DNA from: an uncultured Acidobacteriota bacterium
Lineage (GTDB): Bacteria; Acidobacteriota; Terriglobia; Bryobacterales; UBA6623
Assembly: GCA_963817465.1 (NCBI GenBank)
Contig: CAWFOP010000021.1
Coordinates: 91,429 to 155,428 of the forward strand
Direction: 5' to 3'
Length of the DNA stretch: 64,000 nt
The notes beneath the pieces are model-generated. The model did no database searches, was not told where the DNA came from, and saw only the letters and a program-made list of their open reading frames with translations. The translations under genes were made by a program, and so were the position numbers. Shown here piece by piece: positions 8,579 through 63,195 of this stretch (within the stretch, counting starts at the first letter, position 1; each line of letters opens with the position of its first letter).

Positions 8579-8692
8579 CGCCTCATATTGCCAGATGAAT
8601 CCGCCCGAGGAATCTGCGGCTCCGGAAACGGCATGGTTTCGGCACGTCCGCCGATTGTGCGCTGATGGCGGCATCGCCTAAGATGCTGCTTC

Positions 8693-33900: not shown

Positions 33901-34161
33901 ACCCGCACGCGCATTCGTCCGATCTTCATGAGCGTGACGACGAGCGTGTTCGGCATGTTGCCGCTGGTGCTGTTCCCCGGCGCCGGCTCGGAGCTCTACC
34001 GCGGGCTGGGCAGCGTGGTGGTCGGCGGCTTGGTCGTCTCGACGGTGTTCACGCTGTTCCTAGTGCCGGCGCTGTTCAGCCTGGTGATGGACGCGCGCAA
34101 CGCCATCGTCGGCGTGTTTACCTCGCGCGGCGGCGGTCAGCAGCCGGCCGAGGGCGACTAG
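30979..34161 (+). CDS. Efflux RND transporter permease (AcrB/CzcA family)
   Basis: 1060 aa, 12-TM RND layout, motifs INVISLAGMAFAVGMVVDNSIV and ILIGTVVNNAILVV. Confidence 0.9.
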   Translation: MKVVKSAIELPVTTAVGVILLVMFGAIALYRIPIQLTPTVDEPQITVSTLWPGATPYEVEREIVEQQEEQLKNVQGVVKMESQSAENTGTITLTFQTGTDLDTSLIRVSNSLDQVPRYPDDADKPVIRTDDLRENAIAWLMLLPTENDPNAFSGDIFNLYDFLDNYVKPEFERVPGVGSSFVFGGRETELHVIVEPEKLAAHGITFNQLGAALDRENRNYSGGTFDEGKRRYRVRTMGEYGAPEQIDDVVVAVKNGVPVYVRDLGHAEIGYRKATGRPYYFGQPALAMNVTKEPGANVLQVMDQVKARLAELNDGLLKSRGLRLLQAYDQTDYIYSAIDLVVQNLYVGGALAVLILLLFLRNFSSTLIVAIAIPISIIGTFLMMQAFDRTINVISLAGMAFAVGMVVDNSIVSLENIYRHRQMGKSRAQAAYDGAREVWGAVLASTLTTIAVFLPIIFIQEEAGQLFKDIAIALSCSVGLSLIVAVTVIPSLAAKILVKPKEVGKYNIRNLFGLASAMSSLTDGIANFVYWLCGGVFRRLLVVVGLTGISIYLSWQLMPKTEYLPQGNRNLLFGMLQPPPGYNIDEVSNMRNVFIKELGQLWQGTPEQLHAEPGGGVDRWFFIALSNQAFYGIRAKEPTRVRELLPEFTRVSRMFPGTIGFIQQSSLFQSGRAPGRSIDIELSGPTLEGLVERGGQVFGTVRSLMPDAQVQPIPSLDLGDPEMRVITDRRRAAEVGVSNRELGFTVSALIDGAKASDYPYESREIDLKVMSPRSYADRTHLIEQMPVATPGGKLVTVGSLAKVEMTTGPAQINHVERRRSIVVRVLPPDNMPLEQAMDTITNDVLGPMRADGRLGGEFQARLAGTADKLALMLQTLKWNFLLALAITYLLMAALFESFLYPFVIMFSVPLAALGGFLGLALLNQFTFQALDILTMLGFIILIGTVVNNAILVVHQALNHIRDEGLAEREAIRESTRTRIRPIFMSVTTSVFGMLPLVLFPGAGSELYRGLGSVVVGGLVVSTVFTLFLVPALFSLVMDARNAIVGVFTSRGGGQQPAEGD

Positions 34162-40857: not shown

Positions 40858-43135
40858 ATGCTTCACTCGTTCTTAGTGAGACGTGTCTCGATCGTTTGCG
40901 CGGCGATGACGGCGCTGCTGTGGGGCGGCCTCGGTTTGGCTCAGGAGCCGCCGGCCGAAACGCCCACCGTGGAGCTCGCCTCGTTCGCGCCGGGCGGCAA
41001 TTCGCTGTTCGTCGACTACAGGACGGGAAGCCCGGGATGGCCGCGGGCCGCGGTGGGCGCGGACGGATCGTTGTATGTCGCGAGCACGGGCGACAGCTAC
41101 GTTCCGGTCCCTCACGGCGGCGGATACATCAGCTCCATCGCGTTGCTCAGCCGGCTGCGGGAAGGCGGCGAGGAACTCGACAACTGGGTGATGCTCGACG
41201 ATGCCAAGCCGACGGCTGTCGCGACGGGCCCGGACGGAGCGGTCTATTTCGCCGGGGAGCTGAGGCAAAGCGACGCGCTGGAGGCGACGGAAGGGGCGCT
41301 CGATGAGCCCGGCGCGAAGGGCTTTGTGATGAAGCTGTCGGCTGACGGGGAAATCTTGTTTGCGGCGAAACTGCACGGCCGGCCGCAGACCGTCGCGGCC
41401 GATGCGCAGGGCCGGATCTATCTAGCCGGGGCCGCCGCGTCGGACTTCGAGGCGACCGCGGGCGCCTACCAAACGGCGACCGGAGCCGCCGTCTGTGTTC
41501 CATACCCGGATGCGGAACCGGAGGCGTGCGACAGCGGCTTCGCCGCGCGGCTGAGCGCTGACGGCTCGCGCCTCGAGTGGGCGACGTTTCTTGGGGGCGG
41601 GGGAGACGATTGGATCGCGCGGATCGCGGTCGATGCGACGGCGATCCATTTGGCGGGGCAGACGGTTTCGGCGGACTTCCCGGTGACTGCCGGGGCGTTT
41701 CAGTCGGCGTATCGGGGAGGCAAGCAAGTTGGGTTCGCCGAGTTGGGCGATGCGTTCGTCGCGAAGATGTCGCTCGACGGACGCGAGTTGCTCTACTCGA
41801 CTTACCTGGGCGGCTCGTCCGGCGAGCAGGTGGGCGGACTGGCGGTCGACGGTTCCGGGGCCGCCTTGGTGACTGGGACGACCTACTCCGCCGACTTTCC
41901 GGCGACCGGGGGCGCTCCGCAGACCGCCTATGGAGACGGCGACGTGGGCGAGGGCGGCGCGGGCGAGGGCGGCGACGCTTTTTACTTGCTGCTCGATGCG
42001 GGAAACGAGGCTCTCGTGTCGAGCTACCGGGGCGGCGCGGCGGCGGAGTCCGGACGCGGGGCGGTTGCGCTGGACGATGCCGAAGGCGGCGGCTTCGCGG
42101 TCGATGTCGGCCGCGGGCCTGCGTTCAATCCCTGCTCGCGCAACGAATCTATTCTCCGGCTCGACAGGCGGGGGCGGCCGATCGAGCAATTCGAGATGGC
42201 GGCGGGCCTTGTCAGCGGGGACCTGATCGCGGCGAGCGGGAGCTTGGTGTTGGCGGGTCAATCCGTGACCGGATATCGACCCAATGATTTCGCGGTGACG
42301 CCGGGCGCGCCGCAACGGCAAGGCGATGTCTGGATCGCGCGGTTCCGGCTCGAGGCGGACGAGCGGCCTCTGGCGGACTGCGTCGTGAGCGCCGCCTCGT
42401 TTCTCGCGGGGCGGCAGTACGGCTACTTGTCGATCGCGGCCGTGTCGCCGGGGGAGATCGTGTCGATTTTCGGGCGCAATCTTGGGCCGGCGGAAGGGGC
42501 GGTCTTCCAGGTCGGCGATGACGGGCTGGTTCCCACGGAATTGGCGGGCACGACGCTCAGCATCGGAGGGACGGCCGCGCCGCTGCTGTATGTGGGCGAC
42601 GGGCAAGTGAACGCGGTCGTTCCCTTTGGGGTCGGGGCCGGGGAGCGAAAGCGTGCGGCTTACGACGCCGGACGGCGCGACGCGGGAGTACGGCGTCGAG
42701 GTGTTCGATAGCGTGCCGGGCGTCTTCTCGCTCGACGCGAGCGGTTCGGGGCAGGCCGCGGCGCTCAATCAGGACGGCACGTTGAACTCGCCGAGCAACC
42801 CGGCGCACAAGGGCGAAGTGATGACGTTCTACGTCACGGGATTGGGAGCCTTCGATGCGCCGGTCGAGGACGGGTCGGTGATCGGCGCGGCGCCGCCGTT
42901 CCCGCGGACGGTCGAGCCTTTTCAGATTTACGTGCAAGCGCCGTTCGGGTCGGGAGCGGCGGGGATGCCGGTCGAATACGCGGGCGCCGCGCCGGGGTTC
43001 GTCGCGGGGCTGGTGCAGATCAACGCTCGAGTTCCGGAGGCGGCGTCGACCGGAGACGCGGTGCTGGTGCGTATCGTGATGGACGCGCCGAACTTCGAAC
43101 GTTCGCAGGACGGGTTGACGATTGCGGTGGAGTGA
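40858..43135 (+). pseudogene. Secreted beta-propeller-repeat protein with TIGR03437-type (Solibacter) C-terminal domain, one frameshift
   Basis: ORF 40858-42711 ends ...LLYVGDGQVNAVVPFGVGAG and then runs out of frame. ORF 42626-43135 continues SESVRLTTPDGATREYGVEVFDSVPGVFS...YAGAAPGFVAGLVQINARVP...TIAVE. The shift lies in the G-runs at 42628-42643 (e.g. GGGG at 42640-42643). Confidence 0.7.
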
Positions 43136-43344
43136 TTCGCTGGGTTCGGGCTGCGTCCGCGATTCAGCAAGTCCGCGATTAGCCCGGCGGTTGTCGCCTC
43201 CCCGGAGTGAGGTGATGCGCAACGCCCTCCGCGACCATGCGGGCTCGCCGTGGACATTGCCGATTCGACGCCGGCATGCCACGCGGCCGGCCTCATTCCG
43301 CGCCTTTCACCTATCTTTCACCGATCTCTCCAGGACCAGCGATC

Positions 43345-44415
43345 TCAAGCGCGCCGCCTGGGAAGGTACACTCCTTCAAAAAAGGCACGTCGACCTTGAT
43401 GGCGACCCGCGTCCATTGGTATTAAGTTCGCCTGGATCAGAACCGAGTGGACAGTCTCATCAAGCTCCCGACGTCCCTCCGGCTGGATTTGCCGCTCCAC
43501 CCTCACCGATCGAAGGCCTTTCGTATAGACGACCCGTCCAACCATGCCGGCAATCATGATCAACAGGACCACGACGTGCCACCAACCGAACGGGAGCACA
43601 CCGATTAGCTCGAGCGCGATCACGGCTGCGGTCAGCAGCACGGCGGTCAGCTGCGGTTCTGAGAACGCATATACGAAATACCGTCCTGGATCTCCCCTCA
43701 GGAATTCAAACGAGAAACGCCCGGCGCCATAGCCCACAATGTATAAGGCAACGTTCTCACCCGGCGCATGATGTAGGATGTGCGTGGCGATTGCGAGCCC
43801 GGCTAGCATAAATAGCCACGTAGCCTCCACCAGCTGAACCGGAAAGAGCCGTACTCCTCTGACAAAATAGAAGTATCCGGTTGCGGCGTGCCTGCTTCCA
43901 TAGCGGACGCCCCATCCGCTGGGTCGACCGTGACAGCATCCCGCCATAAAACACCCCACTCTGCCAAAAGCCTGATACACGAGCAGGGCAACGACTAGAA
44001 TGTCCAAATATGCGAAGACAGGTTCTCTCAGCAGTAGAAGGAGCGCTACGGTGAAGATCAGCGCCACAATCTGAAAATGATAGACGCCCTTCTTCGCCCA
44101 GTTCAGCAGGGAGTAAGAGCGCCGTAGCAGTTTAGTGCTCTTGAACAGGGCGAACGACAACATAGCCACCAATCCCACGATTGTCGCTAGCACCGAGATG
44201 GAAACCGGGGCCGTAGAGGCGAGTGCGAAAAGAACGCCGGTACCCACGACCACCCCGGAGTAGATCCATACGAAGTAGCTATTCCAGGTTCGTCCAAAAC
44301 AGGTAATCTCGCGCTTCGCGGCCGCGTCCATGAGAAGATTAAAGAGCCGTTGAATTTGAGCTTTCATGAACGTTCTTTTGCTCCTTATCGCTATTCCTAA
44401 TCCTTCACCGATCAT
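43345..44415 (-). CDS. Lgt-family (prolipoprotein diacylglyceryl transferase-like) polytopic membrane protein
   Basis: Seven or so hydrophobic helices plus FGRVGCFMAGCCHGRP, the G-R-x-G-C-x-x-x-G-C-C-x-G variant of the Lgt signature as I recall it. It is the last gene of the RiPP island. An alternative start is ATG 44367. Confidence 0.55.
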   Translation of the reverse strand: MIGEGLGIAIRSKRTFMKAQIQRLFNLLMDAAAKREITCFGRTWNSYFVWIYSGVVVGTGVLFALASTAPVSISVLATIVGLVAMLSFALFKSTKLLRRSYSLLNWAKKGVYHFQIVALIFTVALLLLLREPVFAYLDILVVALLVYQAFGRVGCFMAGCCHGRPSGWGVRYGSRHAATGYFYFVRGVRLFPVQLVEATWLFMLAGLAIATHILHHAPGENVALYIVGYGAGRFSFEFLRGDPGRYFVYAFSEPQLTAVLLTAAVIALELIGVLPFGWWHVVVLLIMIAGMVGRVVYTKGLRSVRVERQIQPEGRRELDETVHSVLIQANLIPMDAGRHQGRRAFFEGVYLPRRRA

Positions 44416-44422
44416 GATTTAC

Positions 44423-46759
44423 TTATATCTCAAGCGCATCACGCTCCAGTAAGAGAACGGAAGGCGCTTTCCGATCGTACAGCCGGAGATAGAAGTAGCC
44501 GACGCCGCTAAGCCCAAGCATGAGCCCCGGCGCTCTCGACCCTAGAGAGCCGAAGGGCCATTGATGTCGTCGTGCTCCATGCTTGCGAATCCCCTCAGCA
44601 GCCACTTTCATGGCCACTTCGCGGCCATCGGGGAAGGCGTCCCCGAGGATCTCAGAACCAATGGTGAGAATGTCGGCATTGCCGGCAAGACCGTGGCAGA
44701 GCGAGAAATTGAATACTCCAGAGTCGAGGGTGCGCAAAGTCCATCGCAGCGTCGTCGTCAAGGCCGTGAGGGCTTCGGATCTACAGCGCTCATCGTCCAA
44801 GACACGGAAGGCATGGAGGCGCGAAAGGGCGATGCCGGCGGCTCCATGGCACCAGAAGGCCGGGAAGTCGACAGGACAGTCGATCCTTGTCGCACGCGCA
44901 GGCACGCCGCGGAAGTCCGGCCAATTACCCAACTCTTCGTTGAACCAGAGCCGCTCATACTTGAAGGCGTCTTGGGCGAGGTCGCGGTACTCGGTATTTT
45001 GAGTGGCCCGATACAATTCGATCAGGCCGTGGGCGACGCCCGCCGTACCATGTGAGAGTCCGAGCAACCCGCGTTGTTTTGGAAAGTCCGGAGACTTCCA
45101 GGAACAACATTCGCCTTTTCTTTGTGCGGCTCGAACGAGTTGGCTCCCTAGTTGAACTGCGAAGTCCGAACGGTCAAAGCCGCCCAGGATATGGCCCAAT
45201 ATCAGGAGTGCAACGATAGCGCCGCCGCTCCCGGATACCAGGTCGGCGCTAGAAACAACCGGATTCCGCCGCAGGGCATCCTCCACTAGGTGCACGGCGC
45301 GGCGGACAAGGTCCTCCTCGCCGAGCCGCCTGCCGACGTAGGCGGCCGCGACCGCTACGCCCAGGACGCCTTCATATAAGCCCAGCCCTTTGCACAACGA
45401 CGGCGAACAGGAGGCGGATATCGCCTGCCGAATTGCACCGAGAGCAGTCCGCCGCACGGCAATCTCGCCAGTGGCCGCATGCAGTTCCGCCAGAAACAAG
45501 GCAATGCCACTCGTCCCGGCATAAAAATCGGGTCCAAGCGTCTGATACGCCAACCCAGAGTCATACTGCCGCGGAAGGCTATTTTGCGGAAACCCGACAC
45601 CCATCCAGTTGCATCGCTCGTCGTGCCAAATCGCGGCCTCACAAAGAAGGCTCCCGATGTCAAATGCTGTCTCCAATAGCGTCTCTCGGCGGATCGCGGG
45701 CTGTTTGGGAATTCGACGGCCTCTCGCGGTTCCGGGGAGCCGGGAACGGGGTGCAAGGTGGAAAATGTCTTCAGAACCAGGATTGAGAAACGGCTGATCG
45801 AGCGAGACTCCCTGTTCGTCAAAATAGTCCTGCACGGCCGCTACACGCCCGCTGACCGCTGTTTCGCGCAACTCCGCAACGCGCACTAGACCTTCGGCCA
45901 GTATTTGACAGCGGTGCATGCCGAAACTAACCCCCCGGTTTGGCTGCTCCGCTATCCCGAGGCCCAGGCGGAGCCGCTTGGTAAATGCCGGCGTCTCGTT
46001 CTTTAGGTACGGCGCCACTTTGGGCTGAATCAACTCCAGCAGCGGCCGGATACGCGAGTAATCCTCTTTGGCCGTGTAGAGGACCGCAGAATCAGCCCGT
46101 ATGAATAAGTTGGGGTCGTCCACGACCTTCAGCCTGTACGGAATGCGGTCCCGGTTGAATGTTGAAGTTAGAGCCCGCATCAGGACGGTCGCCCCTTCCG
46201 CATGAAGATTCCAATACAGCCTGACGACGGGCGTGTTGCCGCCCGTTGGCAAAACCTCATCTCCCATCGCCTGGTAGAATCCCGGCGACATGAAGGGCAG
46301 CTCTTTCGGCATCGATGTCGAGACTTTATCGCCCTTGATCGGTTCAACTCGAAGAAAGGAGGTCTCACCGTCATTGACATAGAGGCGAAGTCCATTCTGT
46401 TGTATGGCGATCAAATCGCCTTTTTGGTCAATCACCTCCCAACCATGCTGCACAAATCCTTTGCCGTGGTTGGCTGCGGAAAGTGCATTGACAAACGCGC
46501 TCTTTGATGAAACCGGCGAGGGTTGCGCCTCGAAGGATTGCACCGGCACAGCAGCGCCTTTGCAGTAGAAGTGGCTATAGAGCCTCTGTTGCAGTCCGTG
46601 AATGAGGCAGGTCCGCGCGGTTTCCGGAGGTAGCGACCGTCTCAGGCGCAGCGGAAGGGTAGTCTCATGTTCCCAAAACCAAAACCAGGAGAAGGGAGGT
46701 TGAACCTGCGTGGCCTGCACGGCTGACCGCAATCGCTCAACGTGTTCACACGTGCTCAT
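44423..46759 (-). CDS. Fusion protein: N-terminal HopA1-like (putative phospho-Ser/Thr lyase) domain + C-terminal LanC-like lanthionine cyclase
   Basis: C-terminal LanC motifs: AGTSGIALFLAELH, LSHGTAGVAHGLIEL, FWCHGAAGIALSRL and SLCHGLAGNADIL (Zn ligands Cys, Cys-His). The N-terminal ~340 aa (RLYWNLHAEG...RLKVVDDPNLFIRADSAVLY...PAFTKRLRLGLGIAEQPNRGVSFGMHRCQILAEGL) matches my memory of the HopA1 effector-family pattern. No search was run. Confidence 0.7.
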   Translation of the reverse strand: MSTCEHVERLRSAVQATQVQPPFSWFWFWEHETTLPLRLRRSLPPETARTCLIHGLQQRLYSHFYCKGAAVPVQSFEAQPSPVSSKSAFVNALSAANHGKGFVQHGWEVIDQKGDLIAIQQNGLRLYVNDGETSFLRVEPIKGDKVSTSMPKELPFMSPGFYQAMGDEVLPTGGNTPVVRLYWNLHAEGATVLMRALTSTFNRDRIPYRLKVVDDPNLFIRADSAVLYTAKEDYSRIRPLLELIQPKVAPYLKNETPAFTKRLRLGLGIAEQPNRGVSFGMHRCQILAEGLVRVAELRETAVSGRVAAVQDYFDEQGVSLDQPFLNPGSEDIFHLAPRSRLPGTARGRRIPKQPAIRRETLLETAFDIGSLLCEAAIWHDERCNWMGVGFPQNSLPRQYDSGLAYQTLGPDFYAGTSGIALFLAELHAATGEIAVRRTALGAIRQAISASCSPSLCKGLGLYEGVLGVAVAAAYVGRRLGEEDLVRRAVHLVEDALRRNPVVSSADLVSGSGGAIVALLILGHILGGFDRSDFAVQLGSQLVRAAQRKGECCSWKSPDFPKQRGLLGLSHGTAGVAHGLIELYRATQNTEYRDLAQDAFKYERLWFNEELGNWPDFRGVPARATRIDCPVDFPAFWCHGAAGIALSRLHAFRVLDDERCRSEALTALTTTLRWTLRTLDSGVFNFSLCHGLAGNADILTIGSEILGDAFPDGREVAMKVAAEGIRKHGARRHQWPFGSLGSRAPGLMLGLSGVGYFYLRLYDRKAPSVLLLERDALEI

Positions 46760-47894
46760 GACGCCGTCCCGGCAACGGAAGCCCCAATAGCTGCACAGCG
46801 GCTTCCATCGGCCGGGCTAAGATGTTGGAACATAGTTGCAGTAGAGAAACGGCACGAGCGCCAACGCTAGCTTCAACCTGCGATTGCTCGTATGCGGTTT
46901 GGACGAGCCTGACGCCAGCGAAGCTGACGGCGCGCAAGAGCCAAGCCTCTTCTTCGGCAGCGGAAATTCTCATTCGACGGCGGTAGACGCTCCAGAAGGC
47001 TCGTAAAGCAGGCTGCATCCGATGCAGTGGAAACAGGGCAAGACTCAGGAATTGGTCGGGCGGGTGATCGTTGGAGATCGGGATCGATGACAGCCAAAGC
47101 GTCAAGTATTCACTGAAGACCGTGCCGACGTCCCAGCAGGGGTCGCCCAATCGCGCCAACTCCCAGTCGACGATCTTCAACTCAGCCTCCGGGCGAGGCG
47201 CCTCGGCGCATATCAGGCAGTTGTCCCACTTGAGGTCGCCATGGATGAACGTCTCATTCGTCCACTGACCTCTGCAAGCTTCGAATGACTTGCAGAGCTG
47301 ATCCGATTCCTGAATGATCTTAATCAGATCCAGACTCGCCAGGCTGGAATGTAGATAGACCCATTGATCAGGAACGGGAAGAAAAAACACCCATGGCGGC
47401 TTTTCGGGCGCGCGAAGGCTCTTGGTTACGTGGGTTCTTTCCAGCGGCGACGTGTTGTGACACTCGGCAAGCGCCGCAGCCAGCAACCGGGCGATTGTGG
47501 ACGGGAAACGGCCTCGACGCAAGCAATGATCCCGAAGAGTCGTCGATTCCAAGAAAGCTTCGATGATCAGGACTTGCTCGGCGCTATCGAACGCGTAGTA
47601 GCGAGGAAGCGCATGAAAGCCGGCTCGACCGGAATAGACAGTCGCCAGCAATTCATAGACGGCAGCCTCGTACGCAACCGTGGCGAACTTCCGGCGCCGT
47701 GGCGGACTCCCCCTGGTTTCCTGCTTGAGGAAATAATGCGGCCCTTTGCCGTTGATCACTTTAAGGTTGCCGTTGCGCCGAGACGCATTCACAACAGAGA
47801 CGCCGTCGCCAACGACCGCCGCACTCGACACCCACCCCTCGTTCAGCAGGTAGCGTACGACATCTCCGTATCCGGTCAGCACTGACCTAGGCAC
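46746..47894 (-). CDS. Stand-alone phosphotransferase (APH / protein-kinase-like fold)
   Basis: Brenner motif FIHGDLKWDNCLI and IVDWELARLGDPCWDVG. Its stop overlaps the next gene's ATG by 14 nt. Confidence 0.75.
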   Translation of the reverse strand: MPRSVLTGYGDVVRYLLNEGWVSSAAVVGDGVSVVNASRRNGNLKVINGKGPHYFLKQETRGSPPRRRKFATVAYEAAVYELLATVYSGRAGFHALPRYYAFDSAEQVLIIEAFLESTTLRDHCLRRGRFPSTIARLLAAALAECHNTSPLERTHVTKSLRAPEKPPWVFFLPVPDQWVYLHSSLASLDLIKIIQESDQLCKSFEACRGQWTNETFIHGDLKWDNCLICAEAPRPEAELKIVDWELARLGDPCWDVGTVFSEYLTLWLSSIPISNDHPPDQFLSLALFPLHRMQPALRAFWSVYRRRMRISAAEEEAWLLRAVSFAGVRLVQTAYEQSQVEASVGARAVSLLQLCSNILARPMEAAVQLLGLPLPGRRHEHV

Positions 47895-47947
47895 CCATCG
47901 AGGAAGTTAGGGCTTAGTTTGCGCGAGCGTGCAGAGCACCGCTGAAA

Positions 47948-48448
47948 TCAACACCCGCAGCCAGTGGGAGGGTTCGGCCCGCAGAGCGGAGGCGATGAAG
48001 TTGTCGGTATGGGACAATTCGGGTCTCCGGGGAGGTCTGTCGGACAGCCGCCCCAAGACGTGCCTCCGCCAGTCCCTACCAAGGCCGAGATCAGACCGCT
48101 GACGCCAGTCGCTCTTCGCCCATGCGCGGCTTGGATGCTTCCCTTCAGGAAGTCGCCCGACACGACACCTGTGGAGATCAACTGCACCCTCAAGTCTCCA
48201 GGTATCCATACGGCAATTTGCCCGGCGGGAAAACGCTTGACACCGAGGATCCGGTCGACCGGCACCTGAAAGTACTGATTCAGATGGAGCGACGTGTACA
48301 CGCGCAGCGTTTTAGCGTCCGGCCCCCTTCCAATGAGTGTGCCAACCAGTACGTTCACATCCGGATTGTTCGGATCAGGAATTAACCGGTTGATCAGATC
48401 GTCCTCGGTCAACTCCTTCCATCCTTCAGTTGGTCCTTTTTCCGCCAC
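47948..48448 (-). CDS. Putative RiPP (lanthipeptide-type) precursor: ~129-aa Cys-free leader + 37-aa Cys/Ser/Thr/Pro-rich core
   Basis: GTG start at 48448 is 5 nt after GGAGG. The C-terminus TSWGGCPTDLPGDPNCPIPTTSSPPLCGPNPPTGCGC has 5 Cys, 8 Ser/Thr and 10 Pro. There is no Cys anywhere upstream of it. It is the first gene of the island operon. Confidence 0.7.
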   Translation of the reverse strand: MAEKGPTEGWKELTEDDLINRLIPDPNNPDVNVLVGTLIGRGPDAKTLRVYTSLHLNQYFQVPVDRILGVKRFPAGQIAVWIPGDLRVQLISTGVVSGDFLKGSIQAAHGRRATGVSGLISALVGTGGGTSWGGCPTDLPGDPNCPIPTTSSPPLCGPNPPTGCGC

Positions 48449-48747
48449 TTCGACCTCCGATCCGACTGTGAATTTAAGAGACTAAGGTACTCTAATCCGC
48501 GTCCGGCGGGTTGTCAACAGATTTTATGGCGCCCTCTAAAAAGGTCGGTGAGACGCAAGGAAGCTGGAGGAATTTGGCAGGGAATTTGGTTTTCTCAGTT
48601 GGGACTCACCGAGGGGCAAGGGTCGCCCGCCTGGCGGCGGCGGCGGGAGGGGACGTCCACTGCGCGGGTTCCCGCGTTGTATCGGGTTCGGGCGGCATGG
48701 GACAGGGCCCGTGGCGGGCGCTTTCTTGAGTGCTGCAGATTTGGGAC

Positions 48748-48778
48748 GAACAGATCGGCGACGGAACAGATCGGCGAC
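48748..48778. repeat. Tandem 15-bp direct repeat (GAACAGATCGGCGAC x2)
   Basis: Copies at 48748-48762 and 48764-48778 are identical and 1 nt apart. They lie ~300 bp upstream of the precursor gene and just downstream of the transglutaminase-like gene. Confidence 0.6.
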
Positions 48779-48785
48779 AGGCGCG

Positions 48786-49663
48786 CTAGGCGGCGGTGAT
48801 GCGTTCGACTCTTACTTTGGCTTCGACGTCGTGCTCGCCGCCGCCCAGGATGACGCCTGTTACCGGGCTGACGTCGCTGTAGTCGCGGCCCCAGGCGACC
48901 GAGAAGTGGCCGTCGCTGGGCATGACGTTGTTGGTGGGGTCGAAGTCGACCCAGCCGAACTGCGAGCACCAGGCCGAGACCCAGGCGTGTGAAGCTTGGT
49001 CGCCGACGACCCTGGGGCCGGGCTTGAGGTAGCCGCTGACGTAGCGCGCGGGCAGGCCGATCGAGCGCATGCAGCCGATCATCAATTGGGCGAAGTCTTG
49101 GCAGACGCCGCGCTTGTTCTTGACGACCTCTTCGAGCGGCGTGGCCACGGTGGTCGCCTCGGGGTCGTACTCGAATTCGCTGATGGATGCGCTCGCCTGA
49201 GCTCGCGGGCGGCCTCGAGCAGCGGGCGGCCGGGCGTGAAGCTTTTTCGGCGTAGGCGGCCAACTGGGGCCGCAGGCGGACGTTCGGGCGACTCGAAGCA
49301 GAATTCAAAGGCGTCGAGCGCGTCGAGCGTTTCATGGGCGCGGACGACGGCTTTGACGTCTTCCCACGGCGGACTCATGGCCGCGGCCGGGGGCTCGCCG
49401 CCGGTCAGCTCGATAAGGGAGACGCCGCTGACGCTCATCTTCGAATGCGGCTCGCCGATCGTGAAGTAGTTGACGTAGTTGCCGAAGTAGTCTTGGCGCA
49501 GCGCGGTGTCGTAGGGCGCGGGTTCGACGATCAGGCGGTGGCGCACGACCTTCTGGCGATCGCCGGCGCGCGGGCGCAGGCGCACCTCGTTGTAGCAGAG
49601 GGAAACGCGCTCGGTGTAGCCGTAGATCGTCGTGTGGGTGACGCGAAACAACATGGCGATCAA
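48786..49663 (-). pseudogene. Transglutaminase-family protein gene (Bact_transglu_N + Cys-His-Asp core) broken by about 4 frameshifts within ~110 bp
   Basis: The N-terminal part MIAMLFRVTHTTIYGYTERV...DALDAFEFCFES is in one frame and the core ATPLEEVVKNKRGVCQDFAQL...SHAWVSAW...DFDPTN is in another. The joining segments SPNVRLRPQLAAYAEK / SFTPGRPLLEAAREL / SERIHQ / EFEYDPEATTV alternate between frames. Candidate indels are at GGG 49286-49288, TTTTT 49244-49248, ~49196-49201 and ~49179-49181. Confidence 0.75.
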
Positions 49664-52122
49664 TTCCGCGACAGTTGGCGCGACGCGACGGCGTGAATGA
49701 GGTAGCGCCGCGTGAGAGCCTCGGAAACAGCGGGCAATTCCTCGGCGAGCTTCGCGAGCAGCTCTTCGAGGTGAACGCGGGAGCCGTCGGGCCCGAGCGA
49801 AGCCAGGCGCTCGAGGTCGGCCAGTCGCACCGCCGTCAAGGCGCCGAGAACGATGCGAGCGGCGGGCGAGCGGCGCACGGTGGGCGGCCCTTGCGGCAGC
49901 TCGTCGATGTGCTCGCTCATGCGCGCGAGCTGAAACGCCACCGAGCGCGGGTTGGCCTCGTCGATGAGCAGCAAGTCGATGGTCAAGTCGTCTTGCAGCG
50001 ACGTGAGGTAGCGCGAGCGGTAGGTGATGGAGCTGTCGGCGATCTCGAGCAGCATCTCGAGGCGCGCGCGGCTGTTTTCGGCGGGCGTGGCCAAGCCGCG
50101 GCGCAGCAGTTGGACCAGTTGGATGGCGCGCTCGAGGCGGCGGCCGACTTCGAGCAGGCGCCAGCCGTGGCCCCGCGTCATGCTCTCCATCACCAGGCCC
50201 GAGAAGGCTGAAAGCGAGATGATCGCGCGGTCGAGCAGATCGAGCGCCGAGCTGACGCGCGTGGGCTCGACCGGGTGCGATTCGGTGAAGTCCTGATGCA
50301 GCCGGTTGAGGATGCGCCAGGCGTCGGCGGAGATGCGGTCGCGCAGCAGCCAGGCGAGCCGGCGCAAGTTCTGAACTCCCCAGCCGAAGCCGCCGCGGCG
50401 CTTGGCGTCGTAGATCATCGCCGTCAGCTCGCGTTCGAGCAGACGCGCGGGGTTGCGCCGGGCGTCTACGCCCTCGGCGATGGTCAGGTAACCCATGTCG
50501 CGCAGCAGCGAGACGGCGGCGTGAAGCGCCGAGGCGGCGCCGCGGACCGACTCCTCGGCGAGCAGCGGCAGCACGCTGCGCACGATGCGTACCGAGGCGT
50601 CGACGCGTTCGGCGTAACGGCCGAGCCAGAAGAGATTCTCGGCGACGCGGCTGGGCAGGTCGAACGTCGCGCGGCTGACGTCGATGGGCTGCGCGCGGGG
50701 TCGCAGCAGCGTGAGGTCGGGCGATTCGGTGTCGCCCAGCACCCAGGTGTCTTTGCTGCCGCCGCCCTCTTGCATCGAGACGTCGAGCGTGTCGATGGAG
50801 GGGGTAAAGCGCGACAGACCGCCGGGCATCACGGCGTAGTTGTCGCCATCGGAGACGGCGTAGACGCGGACGACCAGGTAGCGCGGCTGCATCTTGCCGT
50901 CGACCCAGGTGGGCGTGGTCGACAGGGACACGCGCTCTTGCGCGATATAGCGGTGCGGCGAGGCGCGCATCTTCGCGAGCAGCGATTCGCGCTCGTTGGC
51001 GCTGAGCTTCGAAGCAAAGATCGGCTCGCGGCGGCGGCGGACGGTCGCGCCCTTGACGACTAATTCGTCGAGGTGGTCGATGACATAGGAGCGCGGCTTA
51101 TCTTGCCCGCACCACCAGGTCGCGACCGACGGGACGCGCAGCTCTTCGCCAAGCAGCGTACGGCAAAGCGCCGGCAGGAAAGCCGCCATGGCCGGCGCCT
51201 CGACCAGGCCCGAGCCGAGCGAGTTGGCGACGGTGACGCCCCCGGCGCGGACGGCTTGAACGAGCCCGGGCACTCCGAGCATGGAGTCGCCGCGCAGCTC
51301 GAGCGGGTCGCAAAAACTGTCGTCCTGGCGGCGCAGGACGAGGTCGATCGGCAGCAGGCCGCCGAGGGTCTTGAGGTAGACGCGGTTGTCGCGGCAGGTC
51401 AGATCGCCGCCCTCGACGAGCGTATAGCCGAGGTAGCGGGCCAGGTAGGCGTGCTCGAAGTAGGTCTCGTTATAGGGCCCGGGCGTGAGGACCGCGATGC
51501 GCGGATTCTCTTGCACGCTGTGGGCCTGCGCGATGAGCGCGTCGCGCAGCTTTTGGAAGTAGTGCGCCAGCCGGCGCACGTTCGCCTTCTCGAAAAGGTC
51601 GGGGAAAGAGCGCCGCATGACGATGCGGTTTTCCAGAGCGTAGCCCGAGCCGGACGGCGCTTGCGTGCGATCGGCGACGACCCACCACTGGCCGTCGGGC
51701 GCGCGCACCAGGTCGGCGGCGTAGATCGTGAGGAATGAGCCGTTGTTGGGCTCGATGCCGTGACAGGGGCGCAGATAGCCGGGATGGCTGAAGATCAGGT
51801 CGGGCGGCAGGCGGTTCTCGGCGAGCAGGCGGCGGGGACCGTAAAGGTCCTTGAGGATCAGGTTGAACAGGCGCGCGCGCTGCTGGATGGCCGCCTCGAG
51901 GCGCGCCCACTCGTCGCCCGCCATGATCTGCGGCATCATGTCGAGCGGCCACGGACGTTCTAGGTTGTCCTGGCTTTCGCTGTAGACGTTGTAGGTGATG
52001 CCGTTGTCGTGGATCAGGCGCAGGGCCTGTTCCCAGCGATTGCGGATTTCGGCGGGTCCGAGACCGTCGAGGCCGCTGAGCAGCTTTTGCCAGTGCGGAC
52101 GGCGGGCGCCGTCGGCCATCAT
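49660..52122 (-). CDS. Fused circularly permuted type-2 ATP-grasp protein + alpha-E domain protein
   Basis: 820 aa. The N-terminal half matches the COG2308-type pattern (WPLDMMPQI, GYLRPCHG, YAADLVRAPDGQWWV) and the C-terminal half is an alpha-E-like helical domain (NLFWLGRYAERVDA). It directly precedes the transglutaminase-like gene, which is the classical operon order. Confidence 0.75.
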   Translation of the reverse strand: MMADGARRPHWQKLLSGLDGLGPAEIRNRWEQALRLIHDNGITYNVYSESQDNLERPWPLDMMPQIMAGDEWARLEAAIQQRARLFNLILKDLYGPRRLLAENRLPPDLIFSHPGYLRPCHGIEPNNGSFLTIYAADLVRAPDGQWWVVADRTQAPSGSGYALENRIVMRRSFPDLFEKANVRRLAHYFQKLRDALIAQAHSVQENPRIAVLTPGPYNETYFEHAYLARYLGYTLVEGGDLTCRDNRVYLKTLGGLLPIDLVLRRQDDSFCDPLELRGDSMLGVPGLVQAVRAGGVTVANSLGSGLVEAPAMAAFLPALCRTLLGEELRVPSVATWWCGQDKPRSYVIDHLDELVVKGATVRRRREPIFASKLSANERESLLAKMRASPHRYIAQERVSLSTTPTWVDGKMQPRYLVVRVYAVSDGDNYAVMPGGLSRFTPSIDTLDVSMQEGGGSKDTWVLGDTESPDLTLLRPRAQPIDVSRATFDLPSRVAENLFWLGRYAERVDASVRIVRSVLPLLAEESVRGAASALHAAVSLLRDMGYLTIAEGVDARRNPARLLERELTAMIYDAKRRGGFGWGVQNLRRLAWLLRDRISADAWRILNRLHQDFTESHPVEPTRVSSALDLLDRAIISLSAFSGLVMESMTRGHGWRLLEVGRRLERAIQLVQLLRRGLATPAENSRARLEMLLEIADSSITYRSRYLTSLQDDLTIDLLLIDEANPRSVAFQLARMSEHIDELPQGPPTVRRSPAARIVLGALTAVRLADLERLASLGPDGSRVHLEELLAKLAEELPAVSEALTRRYLIHAVASRQLSRN

Positions 52123-52270: not shown

Positions 52271-53242
<972 letters not shown>

Positions 53243-53245
53243 AAA

Positions 53246-54559
53246 CTACTCGGCTAGGCGCACGCCGCTGAACTGCCAGCGCGCCTCGGGCGGAAAGAAA
53301 TTGCGATACGTCGAGCGCATATGGTCTTGAGACGTTACGCACGAGCCGCCGCGCAGCACGAACTGATTGCACATGAACTTGCCGTTGTACTCGCCGACGG
53401 CGCCCGGCGCGGCGCGGAAGCCCGGGTAGGGCGAGTAGGGGCTCGCCGTCCACTCCCAGACGTCGCCGAACATTTGAACCAAGCCGGGTCCGGGCGGCGC
53501 GGGGGCGGGGTGATGGCGGCCGGCGTCGCGGAAGTTGCCGACGATCTCGATTCCGTCGGCCGCGATCTCCCACTCGGCCTCGGTCGGCAGACGCTTGCCG
53601 GCCCAGTTGGCGTAGGCGTCGGCCTCGAAGTAGCTGAGGTGGGTGACCGGCTCGTTCTCATCGAGCGGCACGACGCCGCCCAGGGTGAACGCGCTCCAGC
53701 GGCCGTTACCGCAGTTGCGCCAGTAGAGCGGGGCTTCCCAGCGGTTTTCGAGGACGGCCGCCCAGCCCAGCGACAGCCAATGCTCGGGCTTGCGATAGCC
53801 GCCGTCTTCGATGAACTCGAGGTACTCGCCGTTGGTGAGCAAGCGCGAGGCTAAGCGGAAGGGCTCGAGATAGACCTTGTGGCGCGGCGATTCATTGTCG
53901 TAGGCGAAGGCTTCTCCGTGGTAGCCGATCTCGCGGACGCCGCCTGGGAACTCGACCCACTCGCACGGCGCCGGCTCAATCGTGAACTCGGCGATCTCGG
54001 GGAACGCTTGATAGACGGGGTCGAGCGGGTTAGTCGCCAAAATGTGCTTGAAGTCGGTGAACAGCAGCTCTTGGTGTTGCTGTTCGTGGTTGAAGCCCAG
54101 CTCGAGCAACCCGCCGATTTTCAGCCAGTCGTCGTCGGAGGCATTGGCGAGCAGCGCGGCCATGCCGCGGTCAACATGGCCGCGGTAGGCGTAGGTGTCG
54201 CTTACCGTCGGGCGGCTCAGCAGGCCGCGCTCGGGGCGGGGATGGCGCTCGCCGACCGCCTCGTAATACGAATTGAACAGGTAGTTATAGCGCGGATGGA
54301 ACTTGCGGTATTCCTGGTCGAAGGCCTCGAGCAGGAACGTCTCGAAGAACCAGGACGTGTGCGCCAGATGCCATTTGGGCGGGCTGACGTCGGGCATCGT
54401 CTGCACGACGTAGTCCTCCACGGCGAGCGGACGGCAGATCTGTTCGGACACCGCCCGGATGCGCTTGTAGCGCTCGAGCGCGGCGTCACGATCGGTTGCG
54501 GCCGCTGCGGGAGCGGAGTCGGGGGACTGCAGGGAGGCCATACGCGAGGAGGTCCTCAT
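53246..54559 (-). CDS. egtB: Ergothioneine biosynthesis sulfoxide synthase EgtB (DinB_2 + FGE-sulfatase domains)
   Basis: PPKWHLAHTSWFFE, GFNHEQQHQELL and the C-terminal GDVWEWTASPY...RGGS motifs. Start is ATG 54559 or 54541. The track's 754-aa ORF adds about 317 residues, most of them antisense to hemB. Confidence 0.85.
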   Translation of the reverse strand: MRTSSRMASLQSPDSAPAAAATDRDAALERYKRIRAVSEQICRPLAVEDYVVQTMPDVSPPKWHLAHTSWFFETFLLEAFDQEYRKFHPRYNYLFNSYYEAVGERHPRPERGLLSRPTVSDTYAYRGHVDRGMAALLANASDDDWLKIGGLLELGFNHEQQHQELLFTDFKHILATNPLDPVYQAFPEIAEFTIEPAPCEWVEFPGGVREIGYHGEAFAYDNESPRHKVYLEPFRLASRLLTNGEYLEFIEDGGYRKPEHWLSLGWAAVLENRWEAPLYWRNCGNGRWSAFTLGGVVPLDENEPVTHLSYFEADAYANWAGKRLPTEAEWEIAADGIEIVGNFRDAGRHHPAPAPPGPGLVQMFGDVWEWTASPYSPYPGFRAAPGAVGEYNGKFMCNQFVLRGGSCVTSQDHMRSTYRNFFPPEARWQFSGVRLAE

Positions 54560-54658
54560 GTTAGCGTGCGAACTTCGCTCCATCTTGTAAACACCGCCGG
54601 CTGAAACAGAGTTACAACAGAGGCGTGCGGACTCGTACGCCGCGTTAAGATTGGGACG

Positions 54659-55627
54659 ATGTTCCAACGTCCTCGCCGCAACCGGATCAACGCCGCGATG
54701 CGCGGCCTCGTGCGCGAGACGCGGCTCGACGCCTCGAACCTGGTTTTGCCTGTCTTTGTCGAGGAAGGCAAGCAGGTGCGGCGGCCGATTCCGTCGATGC
54801 CGGGCGTGGTGCGCTACTCGATCGACGAATTGGTCAAGGACGCGGCCGAAGCGTTCGCGCTGGGCGTGCCGGGCGTGGCGCTGTTCCCGGCGCTCGCCGA
54901 CAATCTCAAGGATTCCAAGGGCTCGGAGAGCGTGAACCCCGACGGCTTGCTGCAACGCGCCGTCCGCGCGCTCAAGAAAGACGTGCCGGGTCTGCTGGTG
55001 ATCACCGATGTGGCGCTCGACCCCTATTCGAGCGACGGGCACGACGGCGTGTTGCGCGACGGCAAGATCTTGAACGACGAGACTCTGCCGCTGCTCGCGA
55101 AGATGGCCGTGGCGCAAGCGGCCGCCGGAGCGGACGTCGTGGCGCCGTCGGACATGATGGACGGCCGCGTCGGCGCGATTCGCGAGGCGCTCGACGACGC
55201 CGGGTATACGAACGTTGCGATCTGCAGCTACTGCGCCAAGTACGCTTCGTCGTTCTACGGGCCGTTCCGCGACGCGCTCGATTCCGCGCCGAAGAGCGGC
55301 GACAAGAAGACCTACCAAATGGACCCGGCGAACGCACGCGAGGCGTTGCGCGAGATCGAGCTCGACGAGGCCGAGGGCGCGGATTGGATTCTGATCAAGC
55401 CGGGGCTGCCTTACCTCGACATCGTGCGGCTGGCGCGCGAGTCGACCGCGCTGCCCGTCGCGGCGTACCACGTCTCGGGCGAGTACGCCATGCTCAAAGC
55501 CGCCGCGCAAAACGGCTGGCTCGACTACGACAAGTGCCTGATCGAGGCGCTGACCTGCTTGCGGCGGGCCGGGGCCGACATCATCTTCACCTACGGCGCG
55601 GTCGAAGCGGCGAAGCTGCTGGGCTAG
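54659..55627 (+). CDS. hemB: Porphobilinogen synthase (delta-aminolevulinate dehydratase)
   Basis: RPRRNR...LVLPVFV, VAPSDMMDGRV, YASSFYGPFRDA and KPGLPYLDI motifs. Confidence 0.9.
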   Translation: MFQRPRRNRINAAMRGLVRETRLDASNLVLPVFVEEGKQVRRPIPSMPGVVRYSIDELVKDAAEAFALGVPGVALFPALADNLKDSKGSESVNPDGLLQRAVRALKKDVPGLLVITDVALDPYSSDGHDGVLRDGKILNDETLPLLAKMAVAQAAAGADVVAPSDMMDGRVGAIREALDDAGYTNVAICSYCAKYASSFYGPFRDALDSAPKSGDKKTYQMDPANAREALREIELDEAEGADWILIKPGLPYLDIVRLARESTALPVAAYHVSGEYAMLKAAAQNGWLDYDKCLIEALTCLRRAGADIIFTYGAVEAAKLLG

Positions 55628-61797: not shown

Positions 61798-63195
61798 ATG
61801 GACAGATCGATGCAGCGACTTCTTTGTCTGGCGGCCATGGCCGCCGCCTCGCTGGCCGCGCAAGCTGTGCCGGCCGAGCCCCCGCAGACGCCGCTCACCA
61901 TTGAGCAAGCGGCGCGCCTCTCGGCGCGCAACTACCCGGCGATCCGTTCCTCTCTGGCGGAGATCGCCGCAGCGGGAGGAGGAGTCGACTTGGCCAAGAC
62001 GGCGTATTTGCCGCATGCCGACTTGCGGCTAGCGGTCAACCGCGCCACTCGCAACAACGTCTTTGGACTGACCTTTCCCAATAGCGTGATTCCGGCAATC
62101 TCCGGGCCTGTCCAGGATGAGTCGACGATCAACAGCACATTCGGCAGCGCGGCGGGCGTGTTGTTTTCCTACGAGCCCTTCGACTTTGGGTTGCGGCGCG
62201 CCAACGTCGCCGTCGCCGAGGCCGTCAGGGCTCGCGCCGAGGCCGGCAAGTCGGTCACCGAGTACGAGGTTTCGTTGGCTGCGACGGACGCCTACTTGGA
62301 GGCGGTCGTCCACCGCAAGGCGGTAGAGGCCGCGCAAGCGACCGTAGACCGCATGCAGGTCTTCTTGGATTCGGTTGACGTGCTGGTCCGCAACGAGCTG
62401 CGTCCGGGCGCGGACGCATCGCGGGCCCGCGCTGAGCTGGCGCGCGCTCGCACCGAGATGATTCGCGCCGAACAGGAAGCGCAAACGGCTTTGGCCACGC
62501 TCGCCGAGTGGTTAGGCTTCGCCGGCCAACCCGTCGAGATCGCGCCGGCGTCCTTGCTGGGCGATCCTCCGTCGGGGCTCGCTGAGAGCGGGGCCCTCGA
62601 TGCGCACCCGCTGGCGGCCGCGCAGCAAGCGGATATCGCCGTCAGTGAAGCGCGCCAAGCGGCGCTCGAGAAGGAGTGGCGGCCGACATTTGAGCTGCAA
62701 TCGGCTCTTTATGGACGCGGAACAGGGGCGCGTGTCGACGGCACCTTTCAGGGCGGCGCGAACGGCCTTGCACCGTCCGCCGGAAACTGGGCCGTTGGCT
62801 TCAACATGGAATTCGAGCTGTTCGACTACAAGAAGAATCGCGTCGAGCGCCGTATCGCGGGCCATCAAATCGAGCGCGAACAAGCTCGCAAGGACGTTGT
62901 GCTGCAACAGATCCGGGGCGAAGTCGCCCGCGCCAGGATCGCCGTCGGAGCCGCTCGTCAAGTAGCGGCGAATACGCCTGTCGAACTGGAAGCCGCGCGC
63001 ACCTTGGAAATTCAGGCTCAAGCGCGCTACAAAGCCGAGCTTGGCACGGTGATCGAAGTCGCCGAAGCGCAACGTCTTCTGCGTCAGGCCGAGGTAGACG
63101 ACGCACTAGCCCGCCTCGGAGTGTGGCGCGCCCTTTTCGCGCTCGCCGCAGCCGAGGGAGAGACGGACGAACTGCTGACGGCGGCTAGCCGCTAG
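61798..63195 (+). CDS. TolC-family outer-membrane efflux protein
   Basis: Signal peptide, then two OEP repeats ([18 protein letters not shown]..., coiled-coil-rich sequence). Confidence 0.8.

Follow-up and report, generated by a model that had tools for sequence, protein, structure and literature searches.

A putative class V-type lanthipeptide precursor with a long leader-like domain, encoded beside an Lgt-like membrane protein in an uncultured Acidobacteriota bacterium

The 64,000-nucleotide stretch of DNA analysed here, called the window throughout and numbered from its first letter, comes from an uncultured Acidobacteriota bacterium. It contains on its minus strand four tightly packed genes, encoding successively a small putative precursor protein, a kinase of the APH family, a HopA1-LanC fusion protein and an Lgt-like membrane protein. 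Our results make it highly probable that the product of the first gene serves as substrate in a lanthipeptide pathway of the class V type, the four genes forming a module that was acquired horizontally.

The precursor gene (47948..48448, minus strand, like all features of the module described below) encodes 166 amino acids followed by a stop codon. Its GTG start codon (48448-48446) is preceded, after a 5-nt spacer (TCGAA), by the Shine-Dalgarno sequence GGAGG (48454..48458), as read directly from the sequence, and 32 close homologues, all with a Met in the alignment column of this start and with the same Cys pattern, speak for it. Three segments can be distinguished: a Cys-free N-terminal domain (hereafter N-domain; residues 1-105, 48134..48448), proposed to be the leader or recognition domain; a variable, Gly/Ala-rich linker ending in ALVGTGG (residues 106-129, 48062..48133); and a core tail ending in TGCGC (residues 130-166, 47951..48061). 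Residues 1-129 contain no Cys, and the sequence LVGTGGG stands before the tail. The tail, TSWGGCPTDLPGDPNCPIPTTSSPPLCGPNPPTGCGC, contains 5 Cys (residues 135, 145, 156, 164 and 166), together with 8 Ser/Thr and 10 Pro. The probability that all 5 Cys fall by chance within the last 32 of 166 positions is 2e-4, and conservation among homologues is stronger evidence for this pattern than the chance calculation. A first-pass annotation of this locus had listed the 166-codon open reading frame (ORF), its ribosome-binding site, the confinement of all Cys to the last 32 residues, the Ser/Thr and Pro content and the Gly-rich hinge; all these features are confirmed, the minus strand of the ORF having been left unstated.

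A sigma-70-like promoter candidate, TTGACA-17-TAGAGT (48489..48517, 10/12 matches), is located about 40 nt upstream of the precursor gene. It is the sole minus-strand site found when scanning 43000-49000, a 6-kb region that should contain about two of them by chance alone, and only its position is therefore suggestive. Between the genes of the precursor and the kinase, an attenuator hairpin was considered and rejected (z-score 0.26), and no Rfam family was found in 43000-49500. The N-terminus of the precursor is acidic, without any hydrophobic stretch, and carries no signal peptide.

The second gene (46746..47894) encodes a 382-residue LanK-like kinase of the APH family (Pfam APH, E 8e-11), for which the kinase chain of 9dk1, a kinase/lyase entry, is the nearest solved structure. 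Each of the 19 complete orthologues that were tabulated retains the motifs HGDLKWDN and IVDWE of this kinase, corresponding to HxDxxxxN and DWE. The kinase scores 96.6 bits with the NCBIfam model LxmK (NF038156), the equivalog cut-off of which, 315, is not reached. The third gene (44423..46759), which shares its first 14 nt with the end of the kinase gene, encodes a LanY-LanC fusion of 778 residues. A HopA1-type phospho-Ser/Thr lyase domain (residues 156-325, 45785-46294; Pfam HopA1, E 2.7e-42) matches the profile from position 5 to position 170 of 170 and, among solved structures, 9dk1_B (E 7e-13). It is followed by a LanC cyclase domain (residues 408-768, 44456-45538; Pfam LANC_like, E 1.8e-53), which matches the cyclase domain of LicM2 (E 2e-18). 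In this alignment, the zinc ligands and the acid/base His are present within the motifs GLSHGTAG, WCHGAAG and CHGLAG, whose SHG, WCHG and CHG elements are retained in all complete orthologues tabulated. The fourth gene (43345..44415), starting 7 nt past the stop of the fusion gene, encodes the Lgt-like integral membrane protein as a 356-residue ORF; in the public annotation, the corresponding gene call (P0033) begins at M29 and has 328 residues.

This set of enzymes is reminiscent of class V lanthipeptide biosynthesis, in which dehydration is performed by a separate LanK (PF01636) and LanY (PF17914) (PMC9486802, PMC10604976), as for CaoK and CaoY, which dehydrate a class V precursor (PMC9486802). 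In addition, 20% of HopA1 proteins have been found near or fused to LanC, and these HopA1-LanC fusions were called a possible new, uncharacterised synthetase, in a search that covered short peptides only (Eyles et al., 2021; PMC8153245). In the pathway proposed here, the N-domain, of about 105 residues, would act as the recognition or leader element, the LanK-like kinase would phosphorylate Ser/Thr of the 37-residue tail, and the HopA1-type domain would eliminate the phosphate to leave dehydroalanine or dehydrobutyrine. The fused zinc LanC domain would then add Cys thiols to these residues, thereby forming (methyl)lanthionine rings. The first-pass annotation had proposed a lanthipeptide-type precursor, and the APH kinase, HopA1-LanC fusion and Lgt-like genes found downstream, with their synteny, support it; the Lgt-like gene and the breadth of the leader family had escaped it.

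As the tail ends in T-G-C-x-C, the precursor could alternatively be of the class Va type, with an aminovinyl-(methyl)cysteine ring formed after oxidative decarboxylation of the last Cys. Members of the family do end in [TS]-G-C-x-C, their C-terminal Cys being invariant, and known class Va peptides bear a C-terminal aminovinyl-methylcysteine (PMC11186320). However, the module and its surroundings, like the clade's six complete loci, encode neither a LanD flavoprotein nor a second APH-like protein, LanX, and have a zinc LanC domain in their place. This alternative was thus rejected as very improbable.

To follow the module beyond the window, profiles were built from its proteins and the six-frame ORFs of every fetched locus were scanned. 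The order precursor, APH, HopA1 plus LANC, LGT recurs with unrelated flanks in four other loci (L001, L003, L004 and L005), and also in an Anaerolineae metagenome-assembled genome (L009), the sole match among GTDB species genomes. This order is thus found in Acidobacteria-like, Chloroflexota and other contigs. Considering the 24 tabulated loci with enough downstream DNA, the kinase follows the precursor in 23, and lyase and cyclase come next wherever the locus DNA reaches far enough. The order precursor, kinase, lyase/cyclase is also observed in L036, L037 and L039. Recurrent neighbours of 230 residues in L001, L005 and L010 were discarded, as they are not homologous to each other, and tblastn of the window precursor against the plasmid collection gave no match.

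The module is also distinguished by its composition. It forms a low-GC island (43000-48500), with a GC content of 0.54-0.62 against 0.65-0.70 in its flanks and a GC content at third codon positions of 0.62-0.66 against 0.79-0.91, which suggests horizontal acquisition. Cys/Pro-rich tails are able to bind metals, and the precursor could in principle be unrelated to its neighbours, as a common small protein whose Cys-rich tail binds metal or forms disulfides. Its fixed position beside lanthipeptide enzymes in about 30 loci of several phyla with unrelated flanks, the compositional island formed by the module and the absence of a signal peptide toward an oxidising compartment nevertheless make this the least probable of the explanations considered here, with hardly any chance of being correct. 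The outcome that the first-pass annotation had named as speaking against its proposal, conservation of the tail within a structural protein that has no modification enzymes beside it, is not seen.

The substrate proposed for this class V-type pathway belongs to a large superfamily. An exhaustive profile search yields 757 representative clusters (50% identity) at E <= 1e-3, 86 of them at E <= 1e-10, with proteins of 150-830 residues. Statistics drawn from 149 representatives show an N-domain of about 105-110 residues containing on average 0.23 Cys, followed by tails of 45 to 728 residues (median 64) composed of 9.4% Cys, 16% Ser plus Thr and 13% Pro. The residues D24, G35, G39, R48, Y50, W80, F99, L100 and G102 of the N-domain are conserved in the superfamily. 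In the AlphaFold2 model of the window precursor, residues 30-100 have a pLDDT of 85-91 (10-residue block means) and form mostly beta strands, and disorder prevails from residue 104 on.

No curated family accounts for this domain. The window precursor matches no NCBIfam family at E <= 0.1 and no Pfam family at E <= 0.01, a Pfam scan of ten diverse superfamily members returns nothing, and Foldseek searches of the N-domain model against PDB and BFVD give no significant relative. NHLP, Nif11 and other precursor models find no match in the 149 superfamily members at E <= 1, and assignment of the N-domain to NHLP, Nif11 or any other curated precursor family was thus rejected for the window protein and its 149 relatives alike. 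These results agree with the first-pass annotation, which had described the leader as unusually long and as neither NHLP nor Nif11.

The same annotation had anticipated a conserved leader preceding a hypervariable core, and this stands at one scale only. When superfamily members are compared in pairs, their N-domains are 37.6% identical and their tails 23.9%, shuffled tails giving 18.3%. Within the window's clade, which comprises 7 of the 149 representatives, leader and core are both conserved (63% and 58% identity). Among 31 clade members, C135, C156 and C166 are present in 31/31, C164 in 28/31 and C145 in 25/31, and the tail positions T/S130, S131, T/S137, T150, S152 and T/S162 are conserved. 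The linker is the least conserved segment in the clade (mean column identity 0.58), and across clades it closes with a Gly/Ala-rich run of small residues just before the first Cys, which may resemble double-glycine junctions. Tails of group-7 relatives end in [YF][TS]CxC. At the upper end of the size range, P0193 (614 residues), P0284 (832 residues), P0242, P0267 and P0186 have tails of 190-730 residues made of Cys-Pro-Thr/Ser-rich repeats with 23-59 Cys; fully cross-linked, such long repeat tails would be very large thioether-bridged proteins.

N-domain proteins are encoded directly upstream of three maturase types. The first consists of LanK, LanY and LanC partners, fused or split (L013-L025, L033-L037 and L039), including in a Bacillus thuringiensis assembly of 37% GC (L033) and in L036, where LanY and LanC are separate genes. 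One of these cassettes, on a plasmid of Deinococcus sp. QL22 (NZ_CP097150, L039), contains a precursor ORF (6842-7447) that is unannotated in RefSeq, with a SARP regulator upstream and, downstream, a phosphotransferase, a HopA1-LanC fusion, an S8 subtilase and an LLM flavin oxidoreductase; the S8 subtilase is a plausible leader peptidase. The second type is observed on plasmid NZ_CP108391 of Streptomyces sp. NBC_01320 (L038, 6920-12098) and in Nonomuraea gerenzanensis (NZ_LT559118; L040, 7926-12903), where the N-domain protein is followed by a class I LanC and a full LanB dehydratase. The third consists of a single case (L029), in which an N-domain protein (3239-3901) overlaps the start of an ATP-grasp ribosomal-peptide maturase (3898-4872; TIGR04187, 249 bits, MvdC/MvdD-like). 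Its tail is Cys-free, charged and rich in Lys, Asp and Glu, and the pair is possibly a graspetide system using the same leader family.

Two further observations concern precursors of these loci. In L034 (8394-9522) and L035 (8377-9543), two tandem, non-identical precursors precede one kinase and one lyase-cyclase set. The precursors of the Streptomyces and Nonomuraea loci have long Cys/Thr/Gln-repeat tails, the former being labelled "hypothetical protein" (WP_327250125.1) and the latter unannotated in its PLSDB record.

That the same N-domain serves three maturase types is the strongest argument for its being a recognition or leader element, and it behaves as a portable leader of peptides that are made on the ribosome and modified after translation (RiPPs). 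One has nevertheless to consider that the tail could be modified by the same enzymes and never cleaved, the folded N-domain being functional, for example in assembly or targeting, and the cross-linked, possibly also lipidated tail staying attached to it for good, so that the product is a lanthionine-containing protein. No protease or exporter is encoded in the window module or in most of its relatives, the N-domain is confidently folded and strongly conserved, tails reach 728 residues with 59 Cys, and modification of C-termini by RiPP-type enzymes is known for proteins of more than 30 kDa (PMC13056109). However, a domain found before unrelated tails and with three unrelated maturase types shows the behaviour of a leader, the run of small residues just before the first Cys is placed as in double-glycine leader sites, and the Deinococcus cassette includes the S8 subtilase. 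An uncleaved, lanthionine-containing protein is thus a real but rather unlikely outcome.

The fourth gene distinguishes the window's clade from the rest of the superfamily. It is present in the 6/6 complete loci of this clade, against 0/4 of the distant precursor loci, and it is likewise absent from the distant loci L037 and L039. Its product matches Pfam LGT (PF01790) with 70.5 bits (cut-off 24.9) and falls below the NCBIfam Lgt equivalog cut-offs (TIGR00544, 36.2 bits for a cut-off of 118.9). Its AlphaFold2 model (pLDDT 89.7) has E. coli Lgt (5azb) as its sole significant PDB match (E 1e-5, probability 1.00, TM-score 0.57). Where E. coli Lgt has GRLGNFINGELWG, the family has the motif GRxGCxxxGCC[HY]GxP, which reads GRVGCFMAGCCHGRP in the window protein: the Arg and Gly are kept, and the positions aligned with the Lgt Asn and Glu are Cys. 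Across 47-54 diverse members, the motif is invariant at its R, its first G, all three Cys, the G that follows [HY] and the closing P, and the motif H is found in at least 90% of members. In E. coli Lgt, Asn146, Glu151 and Gly154 are the essential residues of the signature, and residues 205-279 of the E. coli sequence used here agree with the 5azb sequence. By profile alignment to 5azb, the residues aligned with R143, Y235, R239 and E243 are conserved.

A hydropathy and charge heuristic, which is not a prediction tool, gives eight transmembrane segments with the N-terminus inside. With the same heuristic, the motif loop, containing 6 Lys/Arg and no Asp/Glu, falls on the cytoplasmic side, opposite to that in E. 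coli Lgt, which suggests a topology inverted relative to that enzyme. A cytoplasmic motif loop would fit a substrate without a signal peptide. One possibility is that the Cys/Cys-Cys-His set is a metal site that may activate a thiol, as in LanC or prenyltransferases. In this clade only, a fifth step would follow cyclisation, the Lgt-fold enzyme acting on the product at the membrane. This step would most likely be S-lipidation of a remaining free Cys of the tail, for which the invariant C-terminal Cys is the best candidate, the Lgt-like enzyme transferring the lipid. A C-terminal Cys is also common in relatives lacking the Lgt-like gene. A canonical lipobox before the tail Cys was considered and rejected: it is not conserved across the clade, the residues preceding the first tail Cys varying among members (WGG, PF or PG).

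More distant Lgt-like homologues (33-37% identity), with the same invariant motif GRxGCxxxGCCHGxP, are encoded in three loci of extracellular contractile injection systems (eCIS), L010 (8001-9215), L011 and L012 (both 8001-9137). Their genes are located between an AAA ATPase and eCIS_core (DUF4157), near sheath, tube and baseplate genes. A link between precursor and eCIS through the Lgt-like gene was rejected, as these loci encode no N-domain protein, and the small ORFs beside their Lgt-like genes have no Cys-rich tails.

The Lgt-like protein could be something other than a peptide lipidator, with a role in immunity, an export-associated or other membrane role, or a lipid-modifying activity on another substrate, and simply travel with the module. 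Relatives in eCIS loci without a precursor, Cys at the positions aligned with the essential N146 and E151 of Lgt, and the fact that most of the superfamily does without the gene all favour this explanation. On the other hand, the gene is found in 6/6 clade loci from at least two phyla, where it lies next to the cyclase gene or is translationally coupled with it; its product retains the R, Y-R-E and His positions as well as the Lgt fold; and the conserved Lys/Arg-rich loop suggests, by the heuristic only, the cytoplasmic face, where a signal-less substrate resides. We regard a role other than lipidation as a substantial possibility, falling somewhat short of an even chance.

Several points weigh against the class V-type pathway as proposed, or against parts of it. 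What the analysis shows is the gene order, the domain identities, the conserved catalytic motifs, the superfamily pattern and the pairing of one N-domain with three maturase types; dehydration, rings and their pattern, leader cleavage and its site, and lipid on the tail are all inferred. The kinase, being far below the LxmK cut-off, is a distant relative and not an orthologue. The core is conserved rather than hypervariable within the window's clade, and the module in the window encodes no protease and no transporter. No described leader is as large, as folded or as conserved as the N-domain and, given also the tails of 300-728 residues in some relatives, what the pathway makes may not be a released peptide but a modified protein. 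As for the last step, the Lgt-like protein lacks the residues aligned to N146 and E151 of Lgt, the precursor is devoid of a signal peptide and of a consistent lipobox for an Lgt substrate, and the occurrence of Lgt-like relatives in eCIS loci without a precursor means that the role of the Lgt-like protein may not be confined to this peptide.

Taking these points into account, the precursor is best filed as Vb-like, that is, as a LanY-LanC-fused, class V-type precursor with a new, long and portable leader, and the clade-specific Lgt-like protein is best filed as a dedicated, divergent tailoring or anchoring enzyme. A more far-reaching interpretation, which we put forward tentatively because it is rather doubtful that all of its parts hold together, is that the locus makes a lipidated, thioether-cross-linked peptide or protein by an undescribed route. 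In this joint interpretation, NHLP and Nif11 would be joined by the N-domain as a third general family of long RiPP leaders, used by maturases of class I, of the class V type and of the ATP-grasp type. The lipid would be attached to a free tail Cys without Sec export, signal peptide or lipobox, by an inverted Lgt paralogue in which a Cys/Cys-Cys-His set, possibly a zinc site, replaces the Asn/Glu machinery and whose subfamily also serves eCIS loci.

The genes surrounding the module in the window are not conserved next to it in other loci. On one side lie a fucosidase gene and a gene for a Solibacter-type protein; on the other lies a set of permuted ATP-grasp, alpha-E and transglutaminase genes, followed by ergothioneine genes. 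Participation of the upstream ATP-grasp, alpha-E and transglutaminase genes in the cluster was rejected, these genes not being syntenic in any related locus. In this set (49082-52122, minus strand), the gene of an 820-residue protein combining a circularly permuted ATP-grasp and an alpha-E protein precedes an ORF that contains an N-terminal transglutaminase-like region alone, the core domain appearing lost or frameshifted. In 52271-55510 (minus strand), an EgtD-like histidine methyltransferase (Methyltransf_33, E 1e-118) stands beside an EgtB-like protein (DinB_2 and FGE-sulfatase), a pair whose domains suggest ergothioneine synthesis; the listed 754-residue ORF of this region overruns its likely true start and overlaps hemB on the opposite strand. 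Two overlapping plus-strand ORFs, 40858-42711 and 42626-43135, match positions 11-76 and 72-213 of TIGR03437 (Solibacter C-terminal domain) and are probably one gene split by a frameshift; this domain agrees with a host among the Acidobacteriota. Further away, the window contains an RND efflux pair, with an HlyD-type adaptor and an AcrB-type pump (29927-34161, plus strand), and a separate outer-membrane efflux protein (61798-63195, plus strand); no transporter with a C39 peptidase was seen among the scanned window ORFs. In other loci, related cassettes adjoin mobile genes, namely an integrase and Tn3 (L037), IS240 (L033) and several transposases (L038 and L039).

If the proposed pathway is true, the N-domain proteins are a large family of RiPP precursors (757 clusters) which genome-mining tools appear to overlook, maybe because these precursors are 150-830 residues long; the RefSeq/PLSDB records of Deinococcus sp. 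QL22 and of Nonomuraea gerenzanensis, at the least, have the gene unannotated. The leader domain would then be a portable engineering handle comparable to NHLP and Nif11, and the family would provide substrates for the HopA1-LanC fusions, which had been noted in 2021 as a lanthionine synthetase yet to be characterised. Its Lgt-like partner would represent a case of cluster-encoded lanthipeptide lipidation and an entry point to an Lgt subfamily occurring in contractile injection system loci. In the literature searched, beyond which other papers could exist, we found no description of this leader domain, of a cluster-encoded Lgt paralogue in a RiPP cluster, or of an Lgt-like gene in eCIS loci.

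Among known systems, the closest is class Vb, defined by an added dedicated LanC and having one characterised member as of 2024, mSmoA, according to a passage of PMC11186320 that cites Pei et al. (2022). The window module resembles it by its separate APH-family kinase, its HopA1-type lyase and its zinc LanC, and by having neither LanD nor LanX. It differs from it in that LanC is fused to LanY, that the precursor has a leader of about 105 residues plus a linker in place of a short leader, and that an Lgt-like gene is present; furthermore, the hosts of window-type modules are not Actinobacteria and the window kinase scores far below the LxmK equivalog. Class IV LanL enzymes, of the venezuelin type, perform the same steps with a kinase, a phospho-lyase and a zinc-dependent LanC cyclase. 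However, LanL combines these activities in one polypeptide, its lyase being OspF-like and its kinase domain Ser/Thr-protein-kinase-like, whereas the window has a separate APH kinase and a HopA1-type lyase. Consistently, the NCBIfam LanL model (NF038150) matches the LanC part only (residues 411-763, 115.8 bits, cut-off 650).

As regards the leader, the N-domain proteins are reminiscent of the NHLP and Nif11 precursors of proteusins and prochlorosins (Haft et al., 2010, as cited in PMC7268733). These have long conserved leaders preceding hypervariable cores, their leaders being common to several maturase classes, often with GG or GA junctions and sometimes with several precursors per locus. The window N-domain nevertheless shows no sequence relationship with them, exceeds them in length, with about 105 residues plus a linker of about 25, and is predicted to be mostly beta.

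As regards lipidation, the Lgt-like protein shares its fold with E. coli Lgt (5azb). RiPPs lipidated by the housekeeping Lgt pathway through an N-terminal lipoprotein signal, described in 2026, are a precedent for S-diacylglycerylation of Cys, in these DAG-RiPPs (diacylglycerylated RiPPs) by the housekeeping Lgt, LspA and Lnt (PMC13056109). The window protein differs from both in being a dedicated, cluster-encoded paralogue, and from Lgt in that its putative substrate has neither signal peptide nor lipobox and that the signature GRLGNFINGELWG is replaced by GRxGCxxxGCCHGxP.

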